Shown piece after piece: positions 1 through 7,047 of a stretch of 11,683 nucleotides of DNA. The DNA lies in IMG/VR virus record IMGVR_UViG_2663762839_000001, positions 1 to 11,683 of that record. One strand, 5' to 3'. Source of the stretch: a virus. Taxonomy: Duplodnaviria > Heunggongvirae > Uroviricota > Caudoviricetes. The number at the start of each line of letters is the position of its first letter. The stretch's first letter is position 1. The notes under the pieces are model-generated. The model saw nothing but the letters and a program-made list of their open reading frames with translations, was not told where the DNA came from and did no database searches. The position numbers and the translations under genes are program-made.

Positions 1-80
1 CCCCCATATCTTTTTCCGCCCCTGAAATTTGGTTGTTATTCATACAGCATATCAGGCGGTAACGCTCTCCCTTTAACCCA

Positions 81-112
81 CTTATTGTATGATAGTGCTA
101 TCCCACAATAAG
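81..112 (+). promoter_or_regulatory. Putative operator/promoter: perfect 8-bp inverted repeat CTTATTGT (81-88) / ACAATAAG (105-112) with a TATGAT -10-like hexamer (88-93) between the arms, upstream of CDS 126..485
   Basis: Inverted repeat and hexamer read directly from sequence; AGGAAT Shine-Dalgarno-like at 111-116, 9 nt before ATG 126. No -35 element is convincing. Confidence 0.35.
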
Positions 113-125
113 GAATCAGCCAGCC

Positions 126-485
126 ATGAGAATGACCAGCCGCAAAAAAGAGATACTTAGCTACTTTGAACCGGATAACCTCGAATGGGTGACTGGTGAG
201 ATTGGTGCGCCGCCGTTCGATGTGTCGGGTGTGGCCTACCTGCTTCATGGCATGGTGTCGTTCGATAAGCGTCACCAGCTCGAATCAACCCGGCGCACAC
301 TGGAAAGCATGGTTGCTGGTGGACTGCTTGAGCGGGTGACAGTGTATGAATCGCGCCAGATACGGCGCGGCGGTGAGACTAACGCAACGGTCGTGCGTTA
401 CGGTTTACCCGGTCATTGTGCTGTTATGCGCGATACTGGCGGCGCTGATAACGCAATATCAGGTGAATACATGCGGGTCAGTTAA
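126..485 (+). CDS. Hypothetical protein, 119 aa, possible small DNA-binding protein
   Basis: ATG start preceded by AGGAAT; uninterrupted ORF with E. coli-like codon usage; TAA stop at 483-485. Its 3' end overlaps the convergent minus-strand gene by 8 nt. No family recognised. Confidence 0.55.
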   Translation: MRMTSRKKEILSYFEPDNLEWVTGEIGAPPFDVSGVAYLLHGMVSFDKRHQLESTRRTLESMVAGGLLERVTVYESRQIRRGGETNATVVRYGLPGHCAVMRDTGGADNAISGEYMRVS

Positions 486-1020
486 TAGCCTGCAATCTGT
501 CGTTGATGCGGCTCAGGTCGTAAACCCGGCGTTCAATATCCAGCATCAGGAAATTGTGGATCTCGGCCTGCTCAGGATTATCAGACTCTCTGGCCTGTAA
601 TAGCAATTCATTGTAACCATGCAAGCCGCCTGAGTTTTCCGCCGGGGTGGTGCCTTTCCCACGCAGGCAGCTAATGGGCTGATTACTCGTATCGTGTGTT
701 TGCTTCTCCAGCACAATGACGCAATCCCACCAGTCGCCAAAGTCATACGTGTAAACCAGCTTGTCACCCTCATTCTGGAGCGCCGCCCATAGTGGCGTGA
801 TTGCCGCGTTACCCATGCTTTCATCCTCACCCCATACGCGATACTCGCTACCTGGATCACCTTTACGCCCTTTCTCGAACATATACAGGTGTTCGTCATT
901 CCAGCCAAAAGCTAACTGGATCACGGCATGAAGTTTACTAAAGGGGATTTGCTCTGGAACCAGCACACGCCGCCATATAGGTGGTTTGCTGTCTCGGATG
1001 GTTATCTTTAGCTGGTACAT
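478..1020 (-). CDS. PRiA4b ORF-3-like family protein, 180 aa
   Basis: ATG at 1020-1018 with AGGAT 5 nt upstream. Translation contains YTYDFGDWWDCVIVLEK, which I recall as the signature of the plasmid pRiA4b ORF-3-like family (PF07929). Recollection only, not a search result. Confidence 0.6.
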   Translation of the reverse strand: MYQLKITIRDSKPPIWRRVLVPEQIPFSKLHAVIQLAFGWNDEHLYMFEKGRKGDPGSEYRVWGEDESMGNAAITPLWAALQNEGDKLVYTYDFGDWWDCVIVLEKQTHDTSNQPISCLRGKGTTPAENSGGLHGYNELLLQARESDNPEQAEIHNFLMLDIERRVYDLSRINDRLQAIN

Positions 1021-1140
1021 GCAAATCCTGAATAAATGCGAATCGGAAGGATAACGATACTGACGTACTCACAATTCTGTAAAGGTGAATAAAGGAAATT
1101 TGCTTAATACGCATAAGTTACATGTGGAATAATCCCATAT

Positions 1141-1326
1141 CTACCTGCGCGGCGCTGGCTTCTTCCACTGGTAGGCAGGTGCTCGCATCATTTCGCGGAA
1201 CCTGTCGCGCCGGGCTATATCGGCATTAACTGAGCGTTCTATCTCCCGTTGATCTGCCTGTGTAAGCTGGTGGCCTCCGTGCTCAAGTTTGGCGATGGTC
1301 AATAAGGCTATTTCGCGTGGTGTCAT
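1141..1326 (-). CDS. Small hypothetical protein, 61 aa, basic C-terminus
   Basis: ATG at 1326-1324 with AGAGGG Shine-Dalgarno upstream; uninterrupted ORF; basic tail KKPAPRR. Function unknown. Confidence 0.5.
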   Translation of the reverse strand: MTPREIALLTIAKLEHGGHQLTQADQREIERSVNADIARRDRFREMMRAPAYQWKKPAPRR

Positions 1327-1604
1327 ACGTCATACCCTCTGGAAGGATGAAACACGCCCGGATTAAATTTCATTTTTCGCGGGTATGAAAAAACGATGGG
1401 GCGGGCAGTCCCGGACAGTCAGGGCTGTAGAGATTTGACTACCCCCTCCCGGTGATAGTTTATTGCTTGATGTGGACGGCTTGCTATATTGGCGGCGAAT
1501 GCAAATTGTCGCAGAAGTCTATCCCGTTCTATGACGCCCTGTGTGGTTGTGGTGCGAATCGCCCGCGTCACGCCGTTGATTTTAGGCTGCGCTCGGAACG
1601 AACA

Positions 1605-1955
1605 TCACGGCGCAGAAGTGTACCAACCGAATCTTGTTAACCCGGCATCGCAGCGCTCACGATTAAGCACACGTGGCGGGTTTTCTCTGGTCATCAACTC
1701 AAGCAAGGCATTGCCTCCCTGCATCTCCAGTCGGTATTGCCTATCGGTAGTGGTAATGGCATCCGGCAATAACTTTATGGCGGCCTGGCTAAAGTCTCGC
1801 GGTGCGCCGTAAAATTGCGCATCAACAATATGAACCACATCGCCGTTAATCGTTGTCCGATAACGGTCTGGCTGTATGGTAAAGCCCCCACAATGGATAG
1901 CAGATAGTGCCGGTGCCGATGAGATCAGGACGGCTGCCAGAATGTATGGCTTCAT
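1605..1955 (-). CDS. Exported (periplasmic) hypothetical protein, 116 aa, N-terminal signal peptide
   Basis: N-terminus MKPYILAAVLISSAPALSA has a hydrophobic core and an AxA-type cleavage site; two Cys residues in the mature part. Its ATG overlaps the stop of the upstream metallopeptidase gene (ATGA at 1952-1955). Confidence 0.65.
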   Translation of the reverse strand: MKPYILAAVLISSAPALSAIHCGGFTIQPDRYRTTINGDVVHIVDAQFYGAPRDFSQAAIKLLPDAITTTDRQYRLEMQGGNALLELMTRENPPRVLNRERCDAGLTRFGWYTSAP

Positions 1956-2596
1956 TCTTCACCCACCAATTCATCCAGTTCAGCCAGCGTCATAGGCTTT
2001 GGTACAGGCTTGTCAATATCACCCATAATGCGCTGGAAGTTTCTGGCAGGCATATGGTTACGGTTCTCCAGTATTTTCGCCAGCGCGATAACATCCCACC
2101 ATTTCAGGGCAATCAGCGCCTCAGCACGGGAAAGGGATATTCTCTGTATATCAGCATCCTCTCCACCAGCCACCCGGTATACCTCTGATAAATCACGAAC
2201 ATTTTTCATGTCTGCTTTCCCGGACGTTTCCATCAGTGCGTTAATATCATCCCCCGTATAGCGTGATTGCGCGACGATACCAGCCAGAGAGATAACCATA
2301 TCCCGGCATACCTGGTCTATCAGACGTAACCTGGTGTCATCATTCGAGAGGGTGTAAGACTTAACCTCAGCCACATTCCGTGGATAGTTGCCGTGCTGCC
2401 ATACCGCTACAGCTCCACATTCATCAACATCTCCGCTAAGGTAGGTTTTTGCCACTCGGTTATTACCCGATAACGCAATTTCTACCTCCTGTATGCCGAA
2501 AAACCATGCGGCTATCGCATGACCTGCTTCATGTATTGCAAGATGTCTGGGCCAGCGATAGCTGCCGAACTCAATAATGATGGGTTGCGTACTCAT
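1952..2596 (-). CDS. Putative zinc metallopeptidase (HExxH; HEAGH motif near the N-terminus), about 214 aa
   Basis: HEAGHAIAAW motif read from the translation. Start placed at ATG 2596-2594 with GAGGGAAG Shine-Dalgarno upstream, which avoids overlapping the ssb stop; the ORF track's longer version starts at 2653. No signal peptide. Confidence 0.6.
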   Translation of the reverse strand: MSTQPIIIEFGSYRWPRHLAIHEAGHAIAAWFFGIQEVEIALSGNNRVAKTYLSGDVDECGAVAVWQHGNYPRNVAEVKSYTLSNDDTRLRLIDQVCRDMVISLAGIVAQSRYTGDDINALMETSGKADMKNVRDLSEVYRVAGGEDADIQRISLSRAEALIALKWWDVIALAKILENRNHMPARNFQRIMGDIDKPVPKPMTLAELDELVGEE

Positions 2597-2606
2597 ATCT
2601 TCCCTC

Positions 2607-3068
2607 TCAGAATGGCGTTTCATCGTCGAATGGTGGGCGTTGGTCAAAATCATCAGGGGTATTATATAACTCCCATCCCGGCGCGGATTGTGTTGTGTGG
2701 CCCCTGCTGGCTCCGCTTGCTTTGACTGATTCGGCCCGCTTCCCGCCGGGGCGTACCGTTCTGGCGCTGATCACGCTGTCGGCTACTACCTGATAACCTT
2801 GCTGTGTACCGCCATCCTTGCCCGTCCACTGATTGATCTGCATCGCTCCGGCAACACTGACTAAATCGCCTTTAACGTGTCCTGCCAGTGCGTCGGCCTG
2901 TTTGCCGAATGCCACCACGCCCAGCCAGAAAGTAACCTCTCCGCCCTCTGCTGCATGGCAGGGCAGTGCCACCGCTAACCGTCCCATTGCCATGCTTGTA
3001 CCGTTTGCTGTGGTACGGGTCTGGGGATCTGCCACCAGCCGCCCGTATGCTGAAATTTGTGCTGTCAT
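2607..3068 (-). CDS. ssb: Single-stranded DNA-binding protein (SSB), 153 aa
   Basis: OB-fold SSB pattern (LVADPQTRTT..NG..MAMGRLAV...FWLGVVAFGKQAD...GDLVSVAGAMQINQWTGKDGG) and acidic C-terminal tip ending DDETPF, comparable to E. coli SSB DDDIPF. GAGGAA Shine-Dalgarno; ATGA overlap with the upstream gene at 3065-3068. Confidence 0.85.
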   Translation of the reverse strand: MTAQISAYGRLVADPQTRTTANGTSMAMGRLAVALPCHAAEGGEVTFWLGVVAFGKQADALAGHVKGDLVSVAGAMQINQWTGKDGGTQQGYQVVADSVISARTVRPGGKRAESVKASGASRGHTTQSAPGWELYNTPDDFDQRPPFDDETPF

Positions 3069-3367
3069 AGATATTTCCTCATGTAGTCACTACCTCCGGG
3101 GATAATTTTCATTTCTTCCCTTAAAGGCCACTGCTCCGCCATTGCTGCGGTCGAGTGATTCCCGTCATCACGTCCGGCCTGTGCTGCCGTCCAGTGTGTT
3201 GCATATTCTGTAAATCCAATTTCTGCTGGCTGCCTCATCCAGTGGGCGATCATCCTCAAGGTCATTTGCAGGCTTTGGGTGTCGCCCTGTAATGCGCGTT
3301 TGTCAGTAAACCCCTTCAATGCTTCACGCTCCTGATAGGTCATTTTCTGGCTGGTTTCTGTATTCAT
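3065..3367 (-). CDS. Hypothetical protein, 100 aa, first gene of the ssb operon
   Basis: ATG at 3367-3365 with AAGGTGG upstream; uninterrupted ORF; stop overlaps the ssb start. No recognisable family. Confidence 0.5.
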   Translation of the reverse strand: MNTETSQKMTYQEREALKGFTDKRALQGDTQSLQMTLRMIAHWMRQPAEIGFTEYATHWTAAQAGRDDGNHSTAAMAEQWPLREEMKIIPGGSDYMRKYL

Positions 3368-3420
3368 TGCCCACCTTCGTTATAAGCTACCCCCCCCATA
3401 GAATCTTTTTGGGGGTGTAA

Positions 3421-3582
3421 TATCCCTACCAATCCCTACTAACTGTCTCAGGCCACGAATGGCAAGGCTTTCAGACTGGTAGGCATTCAATTTTGTTGCC
3501 CTACATAACCCTACTTATCCCTACTAAATCACTTCAACGGCATTTTGCTGCCTGTTTTATTTGGTAGGGATATGTAGGGATA
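3421..3582. repeat. Iteron cluster: seven copies of the core CCCTAC (TATCCCTAC in the best copies), five direct and two inverted, phased at 10 bp; candidate operator array or replication origin
   Basis: Direct cores at 3424-3429, 3434-3439, 3499-3504, 3509-3514, 3519-3524; inverted GTAGGG at 3564-3569 and 3574-3579. Within each group the spacing is exactly 10 bp. CTTATCCCTAC (3514-3524) and GTAGGGATAAG (3574-3584) form an 11-bp perfect inverted repeat. Confidence 0.6.
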
Positions 3583-4142
3583 AGTGCCGCCGTAAAAGTT
3601 TCAATCACATCACTCTGCCCGCTCTCCACACCGTAAGCACGGGGCATGAACTCCTCAGCCTTCTCGTTATAGCCAACGTTGGTCTGCGCTCTGCCGTTAA
3701 TGCTTCTCGTCAGGTAGCTGGCTCGGTACTCTTTTGCTGCTGATTTTATGGCGCGTGAAAACTTATTGACGGAAAGCGGTTTACCCAAACCGTGATACTC
3801 CATAAACGCCAGATAAAGATGATAAAGATATGTCCTCGGCTCTGGCTGGCCTGCCCATGTACCTCCGCCCATCATCATGCCTTTGGGTTCGTTCATGAAA
3901 AAAAGCGCCGCACACATATCGACAACCGGATCCGTGCCGCGTTTAACCTCTAGCGCCTCCTGCGAATCGCGCTGCTCTAGTAATAGTGCTTTTGCTTTGT
4001 TCTGGTCGGCAAAGGTGGTTAGCAGGTGGCGGATAATCACCGGGATTTCTCGCCTGATTTTTGCTGTTAAATCCGGGTCTTTGTCTGCGTCTGATACCGG
4101 GTTATTAAACGGGAATACCCGTAGCGTGACATTGTCGTTCAT
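3534..4142 (-). CDS. P4-family primase/helicase C-terminal-region-like protein, 202 aa; either a stand-alone domain protein or a 5'-truncated remnant
   Basis: Motifs LRVFPF..DPDLTAKIRREIPVIIRHLL and RTYLYHLYLAFMEYHGLGKPLSVNKFSRAI resemble, from memory, the conserved C-terminal region of phage/plasmid P4-type primases. ATG overlaps the upstream stop (ATGA at 4139-4142) with GAAGGTG upstream. The 3' end runs through two inverted iteron copies. Confidence 0.45.
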   Translation of the reverse strand: MNDNVTLRVFPFNNPVSDADKDPDLTAKIRREIPVIIRHLLTTFADQNKAKALLLEQRDSQEALEVKRGTDPVVDMCAALFFMNEPKGMMMGGGTWAGQPEPRTYLYHLYLAFMEYHGLGKPLSVNKFSRAIKSAAKEYRASYLTRSINGRAQTNVGYNEKAEEFMPRAYGVESGQSDVIETFTAALIPTYPYQIKQAAKCR

Positions 4143-5263
4143 TGCACTGGCACCTTCAGAGGGATCACCGGCACAAAGCCGGGATGCGTAATGGCATTAC
4201 GCCGGATAATGTCCGCGTCACGCGCCGCGTTATCAAACCAGGTCGCCGCCAGCACCAGCGCGGGTAAAACCTCATCCGGTGTGCGCTGAATGATCCGTGC
4301 AGACTGTTCAAGGCGCGTGTTGATATCCGCATTCAGATCTGCTTTCACCCGGCGCAGCGCCAGAAACAGCGCATCGCTGGTTGTACGGGACAACTCCTTA
4401 TCAATTGCCGTATTCAGTGTGTCGCGAATGTCAGTCAGTTCTTCCCACGTCGGCAGGTCAACCGTGTTTTTCACCGCCGGTGCATTGTTCAGTGCCGGAT
4501 GCGTGACGGAAGGCCAGCAAGTGCTCTGCGCAGGTGTTGTTGCCTGCCCCACTGCGGCATTCTGCATCACCGCGGAAGTTGTTAGCGCAGGCACCCGCAT
4601 CCCGGGAGGCGCATCCTTAAACGAGACCGTAATCTCGCCTTCAGCCTTCTTCGGCGCAGCCTGAACTATCTGATACGGATTGTATCCCTGAGCAGAAACG
4701 CCTGTACCGTACGCCCCATAGCCACCGCCCCCCCACTGAGTCGCATTGGCTGCAACCACCGTGTCGCTGGCACCATCAGTAAACCATTCAATAATCGGCT
4801 TCAGCTTGTCCCACATATCCTGAAACCACTTAACAACCGGCCCCCAGTTATTGATCACCATCCCCAGCGGCGACCAGGCAAAAACTTTCTTAAGGAGTTC
4901 CCAGCCAGCCTCAAAATAAGGACCAATGGTTTCCCAGAGTTTCTTAAAATAAGGTCCGACAACATCCCAGTTAGTGATAATTAATCCCGCAGCCAGGGCT
5001 ATCGCCGTCGCAATCATGCCAATCGGCGTCATCGACATGATCCTGCTGACAATACTGATGGCACCGCCAACGCCCATCAATCCCAGTTTCAGAATCGCAA
5101 GACCGGCAGCAAGCCCGACGACGCCGCGAATAACCCGGGGATTTTCATCCGCAAACTTCGTGAATTTTTCCCCCAACTCCCCCAGCCATTGCGTGATATT
5201 TTTGGCGTCACCAGAAAATGCGCCGCCAATAGCCGCAAGGCCGTTAGTTGCGGTCCCCGTCAT
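4139..5263 (-). CDS. Tail tape-measure-like protein (paralog or fragment), 374 aa
   Basis: Hydrophobic, Trp-rich segments (MTPIGMIATAIALAAGLIITNWD, WELLKKVFAWSPLGMVINNWGPVVKWFQDMW) parallel the central region of the 7937..9925 tape measure (MSPVGLITALAAGIALLWEDY). Start sits about 40 nt downstream of an intrinsic terminator; Shine-Dalgarno spacing is short. Confidence 0.5.
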   Translation of the reverse strand: MTGTATNGLAAIGGAFSGDAKNITQWLGELGEKFTKFADENPRVIRGVVGLAAGLAILKLGLMGVGGAISIVSRIMSMTPIGMIATAIALAAGLIITNWDVVGPYFKKLWETIGPYFEAGWELLKKVFAWSPLGMVINNWGPVVKWFQDMWDKLKPIIEWFTDGASDTVVAANATQWGGGGYGAYGTGVSAQGYNPYQIVQAAPKKAEGEITVSFKDAPPGMRVPALTTSAVMQNAAVGQATTPAQSTCWPSVTHPALNNAPAVKNTVDLPTWEELTDIRDTLNTAIDKELSRTTSDALFLALRRVKADLNADINTRLEQSARIIQRTPDEVLPALVLAATWFDNAARDADIIRRNAITHPGFVPVIPLKVPVQ

Positions 5264-5304
5264 TGCCTCTGGTCAGATACTGCCATTTAGTAGGCTCCAG
5301 AAAG

Positions 5305-5329
5305 CAAAAAACCCGCCGGGTGGCGGGTT
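5305..5329 (-). terminator. Rho-independent terminator (minus strand) downstream of the 79-aa membrane protein gene
   Basis: Minus-strand RNA reads AACCCGCC-ACCC-GGCGGGTT followed by TTTTGCTTT: an 8-bp GC-rich stem, 4-nt loop and U-tract, read directly from sequence. Confidence 0.7.
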
Positions 5330-5345
5330 CATTATTGAAGTTTCA

Positions 5346-5585
5346 TTACTGCTTGTTTGCTTCTAACGCTTCAGCTATTCGGCGAAGATACTCATTGTTT
5401 TTAAATGAAACCATGATGCACTCAAAGAATATTCGGCAAAATACAGCACATAACAAAAGCACTAAAGCGCCAGCAGCCTTCCCATTAACAAACGTTATAA
5501 TGGCGGCAACAACCAGAAGTAACATTGTGATGCCATACAGAACGTTGATGATTTTTGGAGTTATTAATTTATCAAATCCGAACAT
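5346..5585 (-). CDS. Small integral membrane protein, 79 aa, two predicted TM helices (moron gene)
   Basis: ATG with AAGGAA upstream; two hydrophobic stretches (IINVLYGITMLLLVVAAIITFV and AAGALVLLLCAVFCRIFFECIMVSF); about 38% GC by hand count over 5341-5590 versus about 55% in a flanking tail gene; own -10 element and terminator. N-terminal FDKLITPKIINVLY is tentatively reminiscent of DUF4282-type small membrane proteins. Confidence 0.65.
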   Translation of the reverse strand: MFGFDKLITPKIINVLYGITMLLLVVAAIITFVNGKAAGALVLLLCAVFCRIFFECIMVSFKNNEYLRRIAEALEANKQ

Positions 5586-5614
5586 GCGACAAATTCCTTA
5601 TCGTGAAAGTAGAA

Positions 5615-5650
5615 GTATCACATTATAATTACGAGTGATTAATCAACAAT
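5615..5650 (-). promoter_or_regulatory. Putative sigma70 promoter for the 79-aa membrane protein gene
   Basis: Minus-strand perfect TATAAT (plus 5627-5622) with a TTGTTG -35-like hexamer (5649-5644) 16 nt upstream; sits at the 3' end of the upstream gene and the intergenic spacer. Confidence 0.4.
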
Positions 5651-5980
5651 CTTTTTGCATGGAAAGGAACCGATGATTTTCGGCGCATCCATGCTGTTCT
5701 GCAGCAGTTGGACATTCAGGAATCGCGTTTCGGTACCAGGGCGACGAATGTATTCAAAGCCGTAGTTGTTACCGTCTTTGGCAGGCATAAGCCCCATGTC
5801 TACTTTCAAACCATTGGTACCCAGTTCGGTGATTTTTTGAGAGGTAACTTTTTCACCGTTGATTGTCGATAACTCGCCCTGGTTTGCAACCATAGTGTAG
5901 CCACCGCATTTAACCGTGAAGCCATCCGCCCACGCGCTGCACGCAGAAAAGACAGCTAACAGAAAAATAATACCCCTCAT
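5639..5980 (-). CDS. Exported protein, 113 aa, signal peptide with possible lipobox (FSAC) or signal peptidase I site (AWA-D)
   Basis: N-terminus MRGIIFLLAVFSACSAWADG; two further Cys (VKCGG, FPCKK). ATG with AAGGGGA upstream, only 3 nt after the stop of the 353-aa tail gene. Confidence 0.65.
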   Translation of the reverse strand: MRGIIFLLAVFSACSAWADGFTVKCGGYTMVANQGELSTINGEKVTSQKITELGTNGLKVDMGLMPAKDGNNYGFEYIRRPGTETRFLNVQLLQNSMDAPKIIGSFPCKKIVD

Positions 5981-5983
5981 TGC

Positions 5984-7045
5984 TCATCCCCTTTGCAAAG
6001 CCGATTGCGTATACAGATCCGCCGCGCCACGCGCTTCGCACATCATATCCATGTACCACGCCTGGCCCCTTGTATCGCCAGTGTACATAATCCCGCGCAC
6101 AATATAAACGCCATCTGTTGCGATGCTGGCAGGTTGTGCTGTTGTGCCGCTGAGCGTGATATTACCGTCCGTGTTCTGGTCGGTGATCTTCCCACCAGCC
6201 ATCGCAATATCGTTGTTCGACAACGCGGTGCGATATACGGAAGCCTGATCCAGTTGAATGAGCCCATTAACCCGGATGTTCGGATTAATAAGCGCGCGGA
6301 CGTTTACGCCGTTGCCGATAGTCTGCTGCGGCATGCCGATAAGCCCGGTGGCGCTGTTGAGCACAATCGCTTCATGAACATATTCGTTATTCGCCACCAT
6401 CTGGCGTTGACCGTCCACAAATTGCCATGTTGCGCCACATTGTCCGGCCACGTTATCCATAAGATGCCGTGTCATGCCGAACAGCACCCGCCCTCGAGGG
6501 TATACGGTAGCAGGCATTTCAGGCGTCAGTCCTTCGGTCGCGCCTTTGGCCTCAAAGTCTTTCATCAGCGCACGGTTCACATCAGCGACCGTGTAACCGG
6601 CAGCCAGCGTCTGTGAGGTTATACTGGTGGCAAATGCCAGATCCGTATCTGCTGCCTGAATCAGGACATAGGAATCAATAGGGCTGTCTTTTCCTGTGAC
6701 CGAGTAGCGAATTTCTCCGCTGAAAATCAGCCCGTAGTTGCGGCCATCACTCTGGCCCACATCTGCCGCGTCGACTTCGCGCACGGTCCCGACGTCGCTT
6801 GCCGCCACCTCCGGCGCGATACCGTCGTAACCGGCAATCAGCCGCACTTTCGAAAATTCCTTCCCGGTGATTCGGTTCACAGTATCTGCCAAGAGGTTAT
6901 AAATTTTGATAGTCCCTACCCGGGACGCGCTGCTGATGTTGAACCAGTCGATCGTAAAGGTGACTTTGAAATCACTTAGCCCAATTCCCTGACCGTTCCC
7001 GTCCACAAGCTGCACCTCTAAATGTCTCATCCAGTTCTGTGACAT
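5984..7045 (-). CDS. Phage tail-tip/baseplate-associated structural protein, 353 aa (family not assigned)
   Basis: Long ORF with GGAG Shine-Dalgarno, coupled (2-nt gap) to the upstream 100-aa gene, third gene after the tape measure; beta-rich, Gly/Asn/Thr-rich composition typical of tail proteins. Function inferred from position only. Confidence 0.55.
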   Translation of the reverse strand: MSQNWMRHLEVQLVDGNGQGIGLSDFKVTFTIDWFNISSASRVGTIKIYNLLADTVNRITGKEFSKVRLIAGYDGIAPEVAASDVGTVREVDAADVGQSDGRNYGLIFSGEIRYSVTGKDSPIDSYVLIQAADTDLAFATSITSQTLAAGYTVADVNRALMKDFEAKGATEGLTPEMPATVYPRGRVLFGMTRHLMDNVAGQCGATWQFVDGQRQMVANNEYVHEAIVLNSATGLIGMPQQTIGNGVNVRALINPNIRVNGLIQLDQASVYRTALSNNDIAMAGGKITDQNTDGNITLSGTTAQPASIATDGVYIVRGIMYTGDTRGQAWYMDMMCEARGAADLYTQSALQRG

Positions 7046-7047
7046 GC

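Follow-up and report, generated by a model that had tools for sequence, protein, structure and literature searches.

Two fused open reading frames from one Escherichia coli isolate, within a very probable deletion scar of two tailed prophages and a P4-type island

Escherichia coli K-12 carries the cryptic prophages e14, CP4-6, Rac, and Qin. In the P4 system, the alpha protein binds iterons in ori and crr through its C-terminal domain. In phage SfV, orf14 encodes the tape measure protein, orf15 a Mu-N-like DNA circularization protein, and orf16 a Mu-P-like baseplate hub protein. SfI, SfV, and e14 share homology (PMC3636060), and phages of the SfV type integrate at thrW, where tandem integration is possible (PMC3636060, PMC3306764).

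Here we analyzed positions 3534–5300 of one contig from an E. coli isolate (the window, meaning the whole stretch of 11,683 bp). Successive illegitimate deletions among the mobile elements of that isolate very probably left this region behind as a scar. The composition of the scar and its breakpoints were observed directly: three illegitimate junctions (J1, J2, and J3) lie inside 1.2 kb, and the sequence holds parts of four genes, which derive from three mobile elements, namely two tailed prophages (SEN34-type and SfV-type) and a P4-type island. The two long open reading frames (ORFs), the mini-ORF, the terminator, and both ATGA overlaps are all present on the minus strand where the original prediction had placed them. 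In the order of the minus strand, the features are as follows.

5309–5330, minus strand: terminator-like hairpin (9-pair stem, 6 G-C; T tract to ~5299)
5260–5286, minus strand: mini-ORF MAVSDQRQ plus stop (ATG GCA GTA TCT GAC CAG AGG CAA TGA)
5268–5269: J1, joining spike codon 6 to codon ~345 of the SfV-type tape measure gene (overlapping ends of BLAST pieces; three-way alignment)
4592–5269, minus strand: SfV-type tape measure fragment, aa ~345–571 of 593 (DNA identity, alignments)
4139–5263, minus strand: 374-aa ORF, an in-frame fusion of a tape measure fragment and a Mu-N-like C-terminus
4592–4593: J2, an in-frame link between the tape measure gene and codon ~294 of the Mu-N-like DNA circularization gene
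4139–4591, minus strand: last ~150 codons of the DNA circularization gene (Mu N / SfV orf15), with its native stop
3534–4142, minus strand: 202-aa ORF (hub start, primase fragment, and read-through tail)
4116–4142, minus strand: first nine codons (MNDNVTLRV) of an SfV-type baseplate hub gene (Mu P / SfV orf16); the matching DNA runs as far as 4116
4116–4117: J3, an in-frame link between hub codon 9 and codon 643/644 of a P4-family primase gene (microhomology TA; BLASTP)
3609–4115, minus strand: C-terminal fragment of a P4-family primase-helicase, aa 644–812 of 813
3534–3608, minus strand: read-through tail of 24 codons (VIETFTAALIPTYPYQIKQAAKCR), defined by alignment with two intact islands (L005 and L011)
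3420–3585: iteron array (ATCCCTAC / GTAGGGAT, 10-nt spacing) downstream of the primase gene

The upstream end belongs to a SEN34-type tail module. Its hairpin (5330–5309) lies ~40 nt before the ATG at 5263, as predicted, and in such modules it stands between a DUF4282 moron and the baseplate spike gene; the region contains three terminator-like sites against 2.4 expected, a count that alone is not above chance. Positions 5268–5329 are 98.4% identical to the same intergenic position of phage SEN34, and positions 5268–10927 are ~98% identical to SEN34-type E. coli prophages. Codons 1–6 of the mini-ORF (5269–5286), together with the Shine-Dalgarno (SD) sequence ahead of them, represent the beginning of the spike gene, whose product begins with MAVSDQTRSG in both SEN34_22 and the spike protein of E. 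coli TST3. The last two codons of the mini-ORF and its stop are tape measure DNA read out of frame, and the TGA overlaps the ATG of the 374-aa ORF, which agrees with the overlap originally described. This tail module is truncated at both ends, the second truncation being at position 10930.

The 374-aa ORF is itself a chimera. Its residues 1–222 match tape measure phrogs and its residues 223–374 match DNA-circularization phrogs (phrog_17109, E 4e-76). The description of this ORF as tape-measure-like thus applies to residues 1–222 and not to the last ~150 residues, a Mu-N-like C-terminus that the first reading had missed. The 678 nt at 4592–5269 are 100% identical to the tape measure gene of the plasmid prophage pHNAH212872-2 (L003, positions 5001–5678), and the fragment shares 95–97% identity with SfV and an E. 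coli prophage. The start codon of the ORF, the ATG at 5263, corresponds to a Met codon inside the parent gene (...LWEAMTGTATNG...), and the ORF begins at parent residue ~347. At J2, 1,758 nt are lost relative to the plasmid prophage and about 1.2 kb relative to SfV. Beyond this junction, window positions 4116–4593 are 98.5–99.2% identical to three intact relatives (L001, L003, and L004). No match was returned by a Pfam scan of the 374-aa ORF, and TIGR01760 scored 17.9 bits, below its cut-off of 28.8. The PhageMin_Tail domain (PF10145; aa 88–296 of the intact 593-aa parent) is missing, as is DNA_circ_N (PF07157; aa 7–93 of the intact 442-aa Mu N / gp43-like protein), of which residues ~294–442 are retained. 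Nor does the ORF occupy the position of a tape measure gene in its own module, between the genes for the tail assembly chaperone and for the N-like and hub proteins: upstream is a six-codon spike stub from another phage type, and downstream the ORF is fused into the N-like gene.

The 202-aa ORF was likewise assembled from unrelated parents. Its ATG overlaps the stop of the 374-aa ORF (ATGA, 4139–4142), and its start is supplied by the hub gene, with the native ATGA overlap and an SD-like GAAGGTG upstream; the SD attributed to this ORF therefore exists and was inherited from the hub gene. The hub protein of the plasmid prophage begins with MNDNVTLRVNGREW, and only nine of its codons are found here, without GpP-like domains 1–4 (aa 5–340 of the intact 359-aa Mu P / gp44-like protein). 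Residues 10–178 are identical at 169/170 positions to residues 643–812 of the 813-aa primase WP_089078847.1 (BLASTP), which is present intact in many E. coli genomes, and window positions 3560–4117 are 98.6% identical to an intact P4-family island (L005). As predicted, the matches cover the C-terminal part of primases alone (phrog_2249, 639–794 of 802; phrog_864, 483–626 of 1064). Pox_D5 was detected with an E-value of 9e-7 (29.7 bits, cut-off 21.4), and the winged-helix origin-binding domain, encoded at about 3657–3935, is present: residues 70–162 match positions 2–93 of the 100 in PDB 1KA8 (E 5e-9). The Zn ribbon, Toprim, D5_N, and DUF5906 (P-loop) regions that the intact parent carries at aa 34–639 are missing from the 202-aa ORF, and TIGR01613 scored 15.7 bits, below its cut-off of 108.7. 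At the other end, a 2-nt insertion (CA on the plus strand, at about 3606–3609) abolishes the native primase stop, and the tail runs into the iterons; both reference islands end natively in ...SGQSDD and a stop. The predicted peptides across the junctions in the two chimeras are ...GMRVPALTT... and MNDNVTLRVFPFNN....

In the intact island, short iterons in both orientations surround an AT-rich center; here the 202-aa ORF lies just upstream of such iterons. Seven iteron copies remain, compared to 11 in intact islands, and an 86-nt deletion between 3573 and 3574 has taken out the AT-rich center of the array. The iteron ATCCCTAC is distinct from the P4 type I iteron.

From these observations we infer a history of deletions. 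Read along the minus strand, a first piece comprises the terminator, the SD, and the six opening codons of the SEN34-type spike gene. It is followed by an internal fragment of the SfV-type tape measure gene, by the 3' third of the SfV-type Mu-N-like gene with the nine opening codons of the Mu-P-like hub gene, and by the final 169 codons of the P4-family primase-helicase gene with the iterons downstream. In three-way alignments each junction showed 2 nt of microhomology. The parents of all segments were found intact, at 97–100% DNA identity, in many E. coli genomes, phages, and plasmids, including SfV, SfI, and SfII, prophages of E. coli and of plasmids, SEN34-type prophages, and the P4-family island, whereas the search for conserved full-length homologs of either ORF, which would have spoken for genuine genes, found none at these sizes. 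The suggestion that modules were fused by deletion, leaving translatable remnants, is thus supported, with three junctions instead of one and with further decay in the same stretch, namely the +2 frameshift at the primase stop and the loss in the iteron array.

Because the joins at J2 and J3 happen to keep the reading frame and the tape measure fragment contains an internal in-frame ATG, an ORF finder calls a 374-aa and a 202-aa ORF. The SD sequences and ATGA overlaps are inherited from the parents rather than evolved for these products. Neither ORF is a genuine gene, and the locus represents ordinary prophage decay, not a new gene pair. The domains that define the parents are missing from each, and both products are most likely non-functional pseudogene remnants. 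A weak counterpoint is that the frame is kept at two of the three junctions and that the third creates an ATGA-coupled start, two in-frame joins having a chance of about 1 in 9; this coincidence is biased, however, as it was the long ORFs that drew attention to the region. In RefSeq, the 202-aa product is named “primase-like DNA-binding domain-containing protein” (WP_045177225.1). A gene call also exists for the 374-aa ORF.

Apart from this contig, the chimeras were seen in a single further assembly (ERR738831). The exact 374-aa and 202-aa proteins occur on two contigs only, the latter on one NCBI contig and one Logan contig, and among about 15 billion proteins the 374-aa protein clusters with no other. 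Of 5,426 complete E. coli genomes, none covers at least 80% of positions 3300–5400 (megablast), and the phages and plasmids that were also searched yielded no other carrier of the junctions. Exact searches for junction 26-mers had no match in viral (J1–J3), metagenome (J2 and J3), or genome (J2 and J3) collections. Such a unique configuration, on a short contig that ends in an IS fragment and belongs to a fragmented draft assembly, could point to a chimeric contig and thus to junctions that are artefacts of assembly. We regard this as exceedingly improbable: the separate Logan assembly of ERR738831 contains a contig of 4,630 bp, which matches window positions 1350–5979 at 100% identity and spans all three junctions (the two assemblies are possibly independent in software only), and false joins by graph assemblers arise where repeats of k-mer length are shared, whereas the junctions here share just 2 nt. 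As for the 374-aa ORF, the chance that it encodes a true second tape-measure-like tail protein, a short one that works with the neighboring tail module, is practically negligible. Its Trp-rich hydrophobic central segment is typical of tape measure proteins, and there are weak matches to the family that includes the window's own tape measure (669 aa from a TTG, 662 aa as annotated; phrog_2276, E 0.0017). The ORF had been proposed as a paralog of that protein, a relationship we rejected, given that BLASTP found just 30% identity over 89 hydrophobic residues (E 0.003). Its DNA is instead 100% identical to an internal part of the 593-aa tape measure of another phage type, it lacks the N-terminal PhageMin_Tail domain, its C-terminal 150 aa derive from another gene, the protein is a singleton, and the tail module beside it is itself truncated at both ends.

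The primase remnant deserves separate consideration, since it keeps a whole P4-alpha-type origin-binding domain beside iterons that look cognate, and a residual iteron-binding role may therefore be conceived, although we consider this unlikely. In its stronger form, the 202-aa product would be a working stand-alone origin-binding protein on the ATCCCTAC iterons, translated through a coupled chain from the mini-ORF via the 374-aa ORF, and, as a dominant-negative or incompatibility factor, would regulate or block replication in related P4-family islands. The complete winged-helix domain, its in-frame fusion to a start codon with an SD, the seven iterons directly downstream, and the existence of phage proteins of ~289 aa that carry this region alone (phrog_7601, E 5e-9) are consistent with this proposal. 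Yet the chimera is private to one isolate, its start and SD are an accidental loan from the hub gene, the native primase C-terminus is destroyed and the ori-like array damaged, and nothing indicates selection on the ORF; the promoter scan detected no promoter-like site on the minus strand between the terminator (5330–5309) and the ORFs, which is weak evidence either way. We thus consider such a protein very unlikely, and the recruitment of a stand-alone primase-C-like gene, offered originally as the alternative to fusion, lacks support as an evolved gene, given the 169/170 match to an intact primase, the borrowed start and SD, and the restriction of the chimera to a single isolate. We also considered a stand-alone primase-C family and rejected it; the 90% cluster of the 202-aa protein is a mixture of contig-end fragments, some named GST, and not of 202-aa proteins. 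A still slimmer prospect is that the accidental fusion might be expressed as a free origin-binding domain that occupies ATCCCTAC iterons and hinders incoming related islands or satellites; if so, a product of decay would act as an incompatibility or immunity factor.

Returning to the deletion scar, in what order the events took place, and whether its three source elements were once tandem neighbors, we can approach by inference; the contig stops short of any chromosomal flank. In strain YZ22MPE6 the intact island is located at the tRNA-Thr beside proA, and in two other strains the same island adjoins dinD. Tandem ancestry at thrW was considered and set aside, given the island's location beside dinD in those two strains and the missing flank.

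The locus is a caution for annotation, in that chimeric pseudogene remnants were called and named as genes. It is also a compact and clear case in which illegitimate deletions between co-resident mobile elements, with 2-nt microhomology, lead to in-frame fusion ORFs, and such ORFs inherit both their ribosome-binding sites and their translational coupling. No open question in biology hinges on the locus.

Compared to its closest relatives, the window is collinear with Salmonella phage SEN34 (Brunovirus) over 5268–10927, from the tube gene to the spike start, at ~82% identity overall (88.7% in the short piece at 5639–5797, and higher still in the intergenic piece given above), and the terminator and spike start are conserved. 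Unlike in SEN34, the spike gene retains codons 1–6 only, the 5' end of the tube gene is absent, and the sheath, baseplate wedge, and fiber genes are missing. With SfV orf14/orf15/orf16 the window shares 97–99% DNA identity over 4116–4593 and 4752–5269, as well as the native orf15/orf16 ATGA overlap; in contrast to SfV, only tape measure aa ~345–571, ~150 C-terminal aa of the N-like protein, and nine hub codons are present, the intervening ~1.2 kb and the remaining phage being absent. Like P4 alpha, the 202-aa ORF holds the whole winged-helix origin-binding domain (1KA8), but it has no Zn ribbon, Toprim primase, D5_N, or SF3 helicase core, its N-terminus is foreign, and its C-terminus is frameshifted. 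Cryptic prophages are similarly patchworks of phage genes truncated by deletions, in which residual ORFs keep parental translation signals, and e14-like prophages have SfV-type tail genes in common with this locus (ymfQ and stfP beside the same module). Unlike those fixed, species-wide remnants, the scar described here is private to one isolate and combines three junctions, two of them in frame, among three element types within 1.2 kb.

The window corresponds end to end to contig CDRI01000217.1 (11,683 bp) of the draft assembly GCA_000946855.1, in reverse orientation, and the RefSeq name of its 202-aa product gives Escherichia coli as the organism. All of the genes under discussion lie on the minus strand. 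The ORFs, mini-ORF, terminator and both overlaps of the original prediction are all present where they had been described, with the stop of the 374-aa ORF overlapping the ATG of the 202-aa ORF:

3534..4142, minus strand, 202-aa ORF
4139..5263, minus strand, 374-aa ORF
5260..5286, minus strand, mini-ORF MAVSDQRQ*, its TGA overlapping the ATG at 5263
5330-5309, minus strand, terminator-like hairpin (9 pairs, 6 G-C, T tract)

The 374-aa ORF is a fusion of two gene fragments. Against PHROG profiles, residues 1-222 align with internal stretches of tape measure families, and residues 223-374 with the C-terminal end of families annotated as "DNA circularization" and baseplate hub (phrog_17109, E 4e-76; phrog_184, E 4e-39). 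In megablast searches, 4592-5269 matches at 100% identity a segment inside the 593-aa tape measure gene of pHNAH212872-2, a prophage-like plasmid; against the tape measure genes of SfV and of a chromosomal prophage, its identity is 95-97%. Positions 4116-4593 share 98.5-99.2% identity with DNA comprising the 3' end of a Mu-N-like DNA circularization gene and the opening 27 nt of the Mu-P-like hub gene. The Mu-N-like gene adjoins the tape measure gene in the parents, and the two pieces, collinear in the window and in intact relatives, are 1.2-1.8 kb apart in the latter. In the window itself, 4592-4593 (junction J2) joins them directly, in frame and with 2 nt shared (...KDAPPGMRV/PALTTSAVMQN..., slash at the join). 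The ATG at 5263 encodes a Met from within the parental tape measure protein (...LSNLWEAMTGTATNG...), and the product has neither the PhageMin_Tail domain of this parent nor the DNA_circ_N domain of the N-like parent. The ORF had been proposed to be a paralog of the window's own tape measure gene; it is not, because the similarity between the two proteins is marginal (E 0.003, 30% over 89 residues).

Positions 5268-5329 are 98.4% identical to phage SEN34 over a stretch that covers intergenic DNA and 19 nt from the start of the baseplate spike gene, and MAVSDQTRSG opens the spike protein both in SEN34 and in an E. coli prophage of SEN34 type. Thus, the mini-ORF is spike codons 1-6, cut at 5268-5269 (junction J1, 2-nt microhomology) and continued by two codons out of frame in tape measure DNA. 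The adjoining 5270-10930 shares ~98% identity with the tail modules of SEN34-type prophages in 119 complete E. coli genomes, where a DUF4282 gene is followed by the 5330-5309 terminator and then by an intact spike gene. The window's tail module lacks sheath, spike, wedge and fibre genes. Homology to E. coli prophages ends within the tube gene at 10930, a fourth junction (10930/10931), beyond which lies a lambdoid early-region fragment (kil region, Kil-like ORF 11025..11177). Given this junction and the truncated tube gene, the "intact" tail module is itself a remnant. The IS3-family-like fragment at the contig end probably accounts for the draft assembly break there:

10559..10900, minus strand, SEN34-type tail tube gene (DUF3277), 146 aa when intact, 5' ~70 nt lost
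11464..11670, minus strand, IS3-family-like transposase C-terminal fragment (…HRKSWKNRAEVELATLTWVDWYNNRRLL…)

The predicted resemblance of the 202-aa ORF to the C-terminal end of primases was borne out, with profile matches confined to C-terminal portions of long primases (phrog_2249, positions 639-794 of 802; phrog_864, 483-626 of 1064; phrog_1156, 681-835 of 855; also Pfam Pox_D5); the NCBIfam P4-primase model scores 15.7 bits, far under its threshold of 108.7. The suggestion of a recruited stand-alone DNA-binding protein is not supported; the ORF is the start of a hub gene fused to a piece of primase. Codons 1-9 (MNDNVTLRV), with the ATG, ATGA overlap and SD-like GAAGGTG, come from an SfV-type hub gene. 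An in-frame join at 4116-4117 (junction J3, 2-nt microhomology) links them to part of a P4-family primase gene, and in the alignment of residues 9-178 with residues 643-812 of WP_089078847.1 (813 aa), 169/170 positions are identical. The intact primase comprises a Zn ribbon (34-69), Toprim (222-319), D5_N (380-499), DUF5906 NTPase (532-639) and Pox_D5 (736-796). The J3 breakpoint lies directly after the NTPase core, so the last domain alone survives, as a complete P4 alpha origin-binding winged helix (PDB 1KA8, E 5e-9, 93 aligned residues). Relative to two intact islands, a 2-nt insertion just 5' of the native stop (...SGQSDD* to ...SGQSDVIETF...) adds a 24-residue tail translated from iteron DNA. 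Besides fragments of primases, the 90%-identity cluster of this protein contains partial glutathione S-transferase sequences, an artefact of clustering short contig-end fragments, and its size is therefore no measure of conservation.

Across 1-3585, the window shares 99.7% identity with the distal end of an integrative island of ~12 kb (integrase, HTH, AntA/AntB, Icd-like, P4-family primase, 100-aa ORF, SSB ... pRiA4b-ORF3). This island occupies tRNA-Thr (thrW), beside proA, in strain YZ22MPE6 (L005) and lies beside dinD in two other strains (L010, L011). The replication and cargo halves of L005 and L010/L011 are near-identical at chromosomal sites that differ among E. coli strains, implying exchange of the integrase module. 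Just 3' of the primase gene, intact islands carry an AT-rich AAAAATATATAT centre surrounded by 11 ATCCCTAC/GTAGGGAT repeats, which occur in both orientations, an arrangement that looks like a replication origin 3' of its own initiator gene. An 86-nt deletion, apparently between directly repeated GTAGGGATA copies, has left seven of the 11 copies in the window and removed the AT-rich centre. Between the iterons and the 100-aa ORF, the poly-C tract at 3392-3399 varies in homopolymer length (8 C in the window and L005, 7 C in L011) and faces a GGGGG run 16 nt off. A conserved gene after SSB, whose product has no match in Pfam, PHROG or NCBIfam, may be metalloprotease-like cargo. A weak N-terminal motif (CGGFT/CGGYT…TING; BLASTP E 6e-4, 29% identity over 45 aa) is common to two small proteins whose N-termini resemble signal peptides; it may reflect distant homology or chance:

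3573/3574, iteron deletion site, 86 nt missing relative to L005 12987-13072
1952..2653, minus strand, island gene after SSB, annotated 214 aa, HEAGH (HExxH-like) motif
1605..1955, minus strand, small protein of the P4-family island
5639..5980, minus strand, small protein, SEN34-type tail moron

The exact 374-aa and 202-aa proteins are recorded on two contigs only: the window and one from the Logan assembly of run ERR738831. Among ~15 billion proteins, the 374-aa protein forms a singleton cluster. None of 5,426 complete E. coli genomes, and no phage or plasmid record, covers at least 80% of 3300-5400; no 26-mer spanning J1, J2 or J3 occurs in 2.9 million viral contigs, and the J2 and J3 26-mers are also missing from metagenome and species-representative genome collections. 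An assembly artefact is unlikely, because k-mer graph mis-assembly does not yield joins with 2-nt microhomology and the second assembler gives the same joins (the Logan contig is 100% identical over 1350-5979, with J1, J2 and J3 inside).

The composition, breakpoints, reading frames, lost domains and extra lesions are direct observations; the joins would have arisen through successive illegitimate deletions among co-resident elements. The deletion alternative of the original prediction was right as to fusion, which involves three junctions and four parent genes rather than one junction between two modules. J3 could stem from a deletion inside a tandem array, a plausible origin given that SfV-type phages integrate at thrW, where tandem integration can occur (PMC3636060, PMC3306764); since the contig has no chromosomal flank, this origin stays inferential. 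The translation signals are inherited (spike SD and ATG, native N/P ATGA coupling, hub SD), and the minus strand has no promoter-like site from the terminator to the ORFs. Frame preservation is no sign of selection, because the chance of two in-frame joins is about 1 in 9 and attention goes to long ORFs to begin with. We infer that the products of both fused ORFs are non-functional. The primase remnant retains an intact origin-binding domain beside seven iterons, and a trans-acting, replication-interfering role for it, conceivable from this arrangement, is very improbable. The locus is ordinary patchwork debris of prophage and satellite, confined to one isolate, and the process behind it, prophage decay, is already known.
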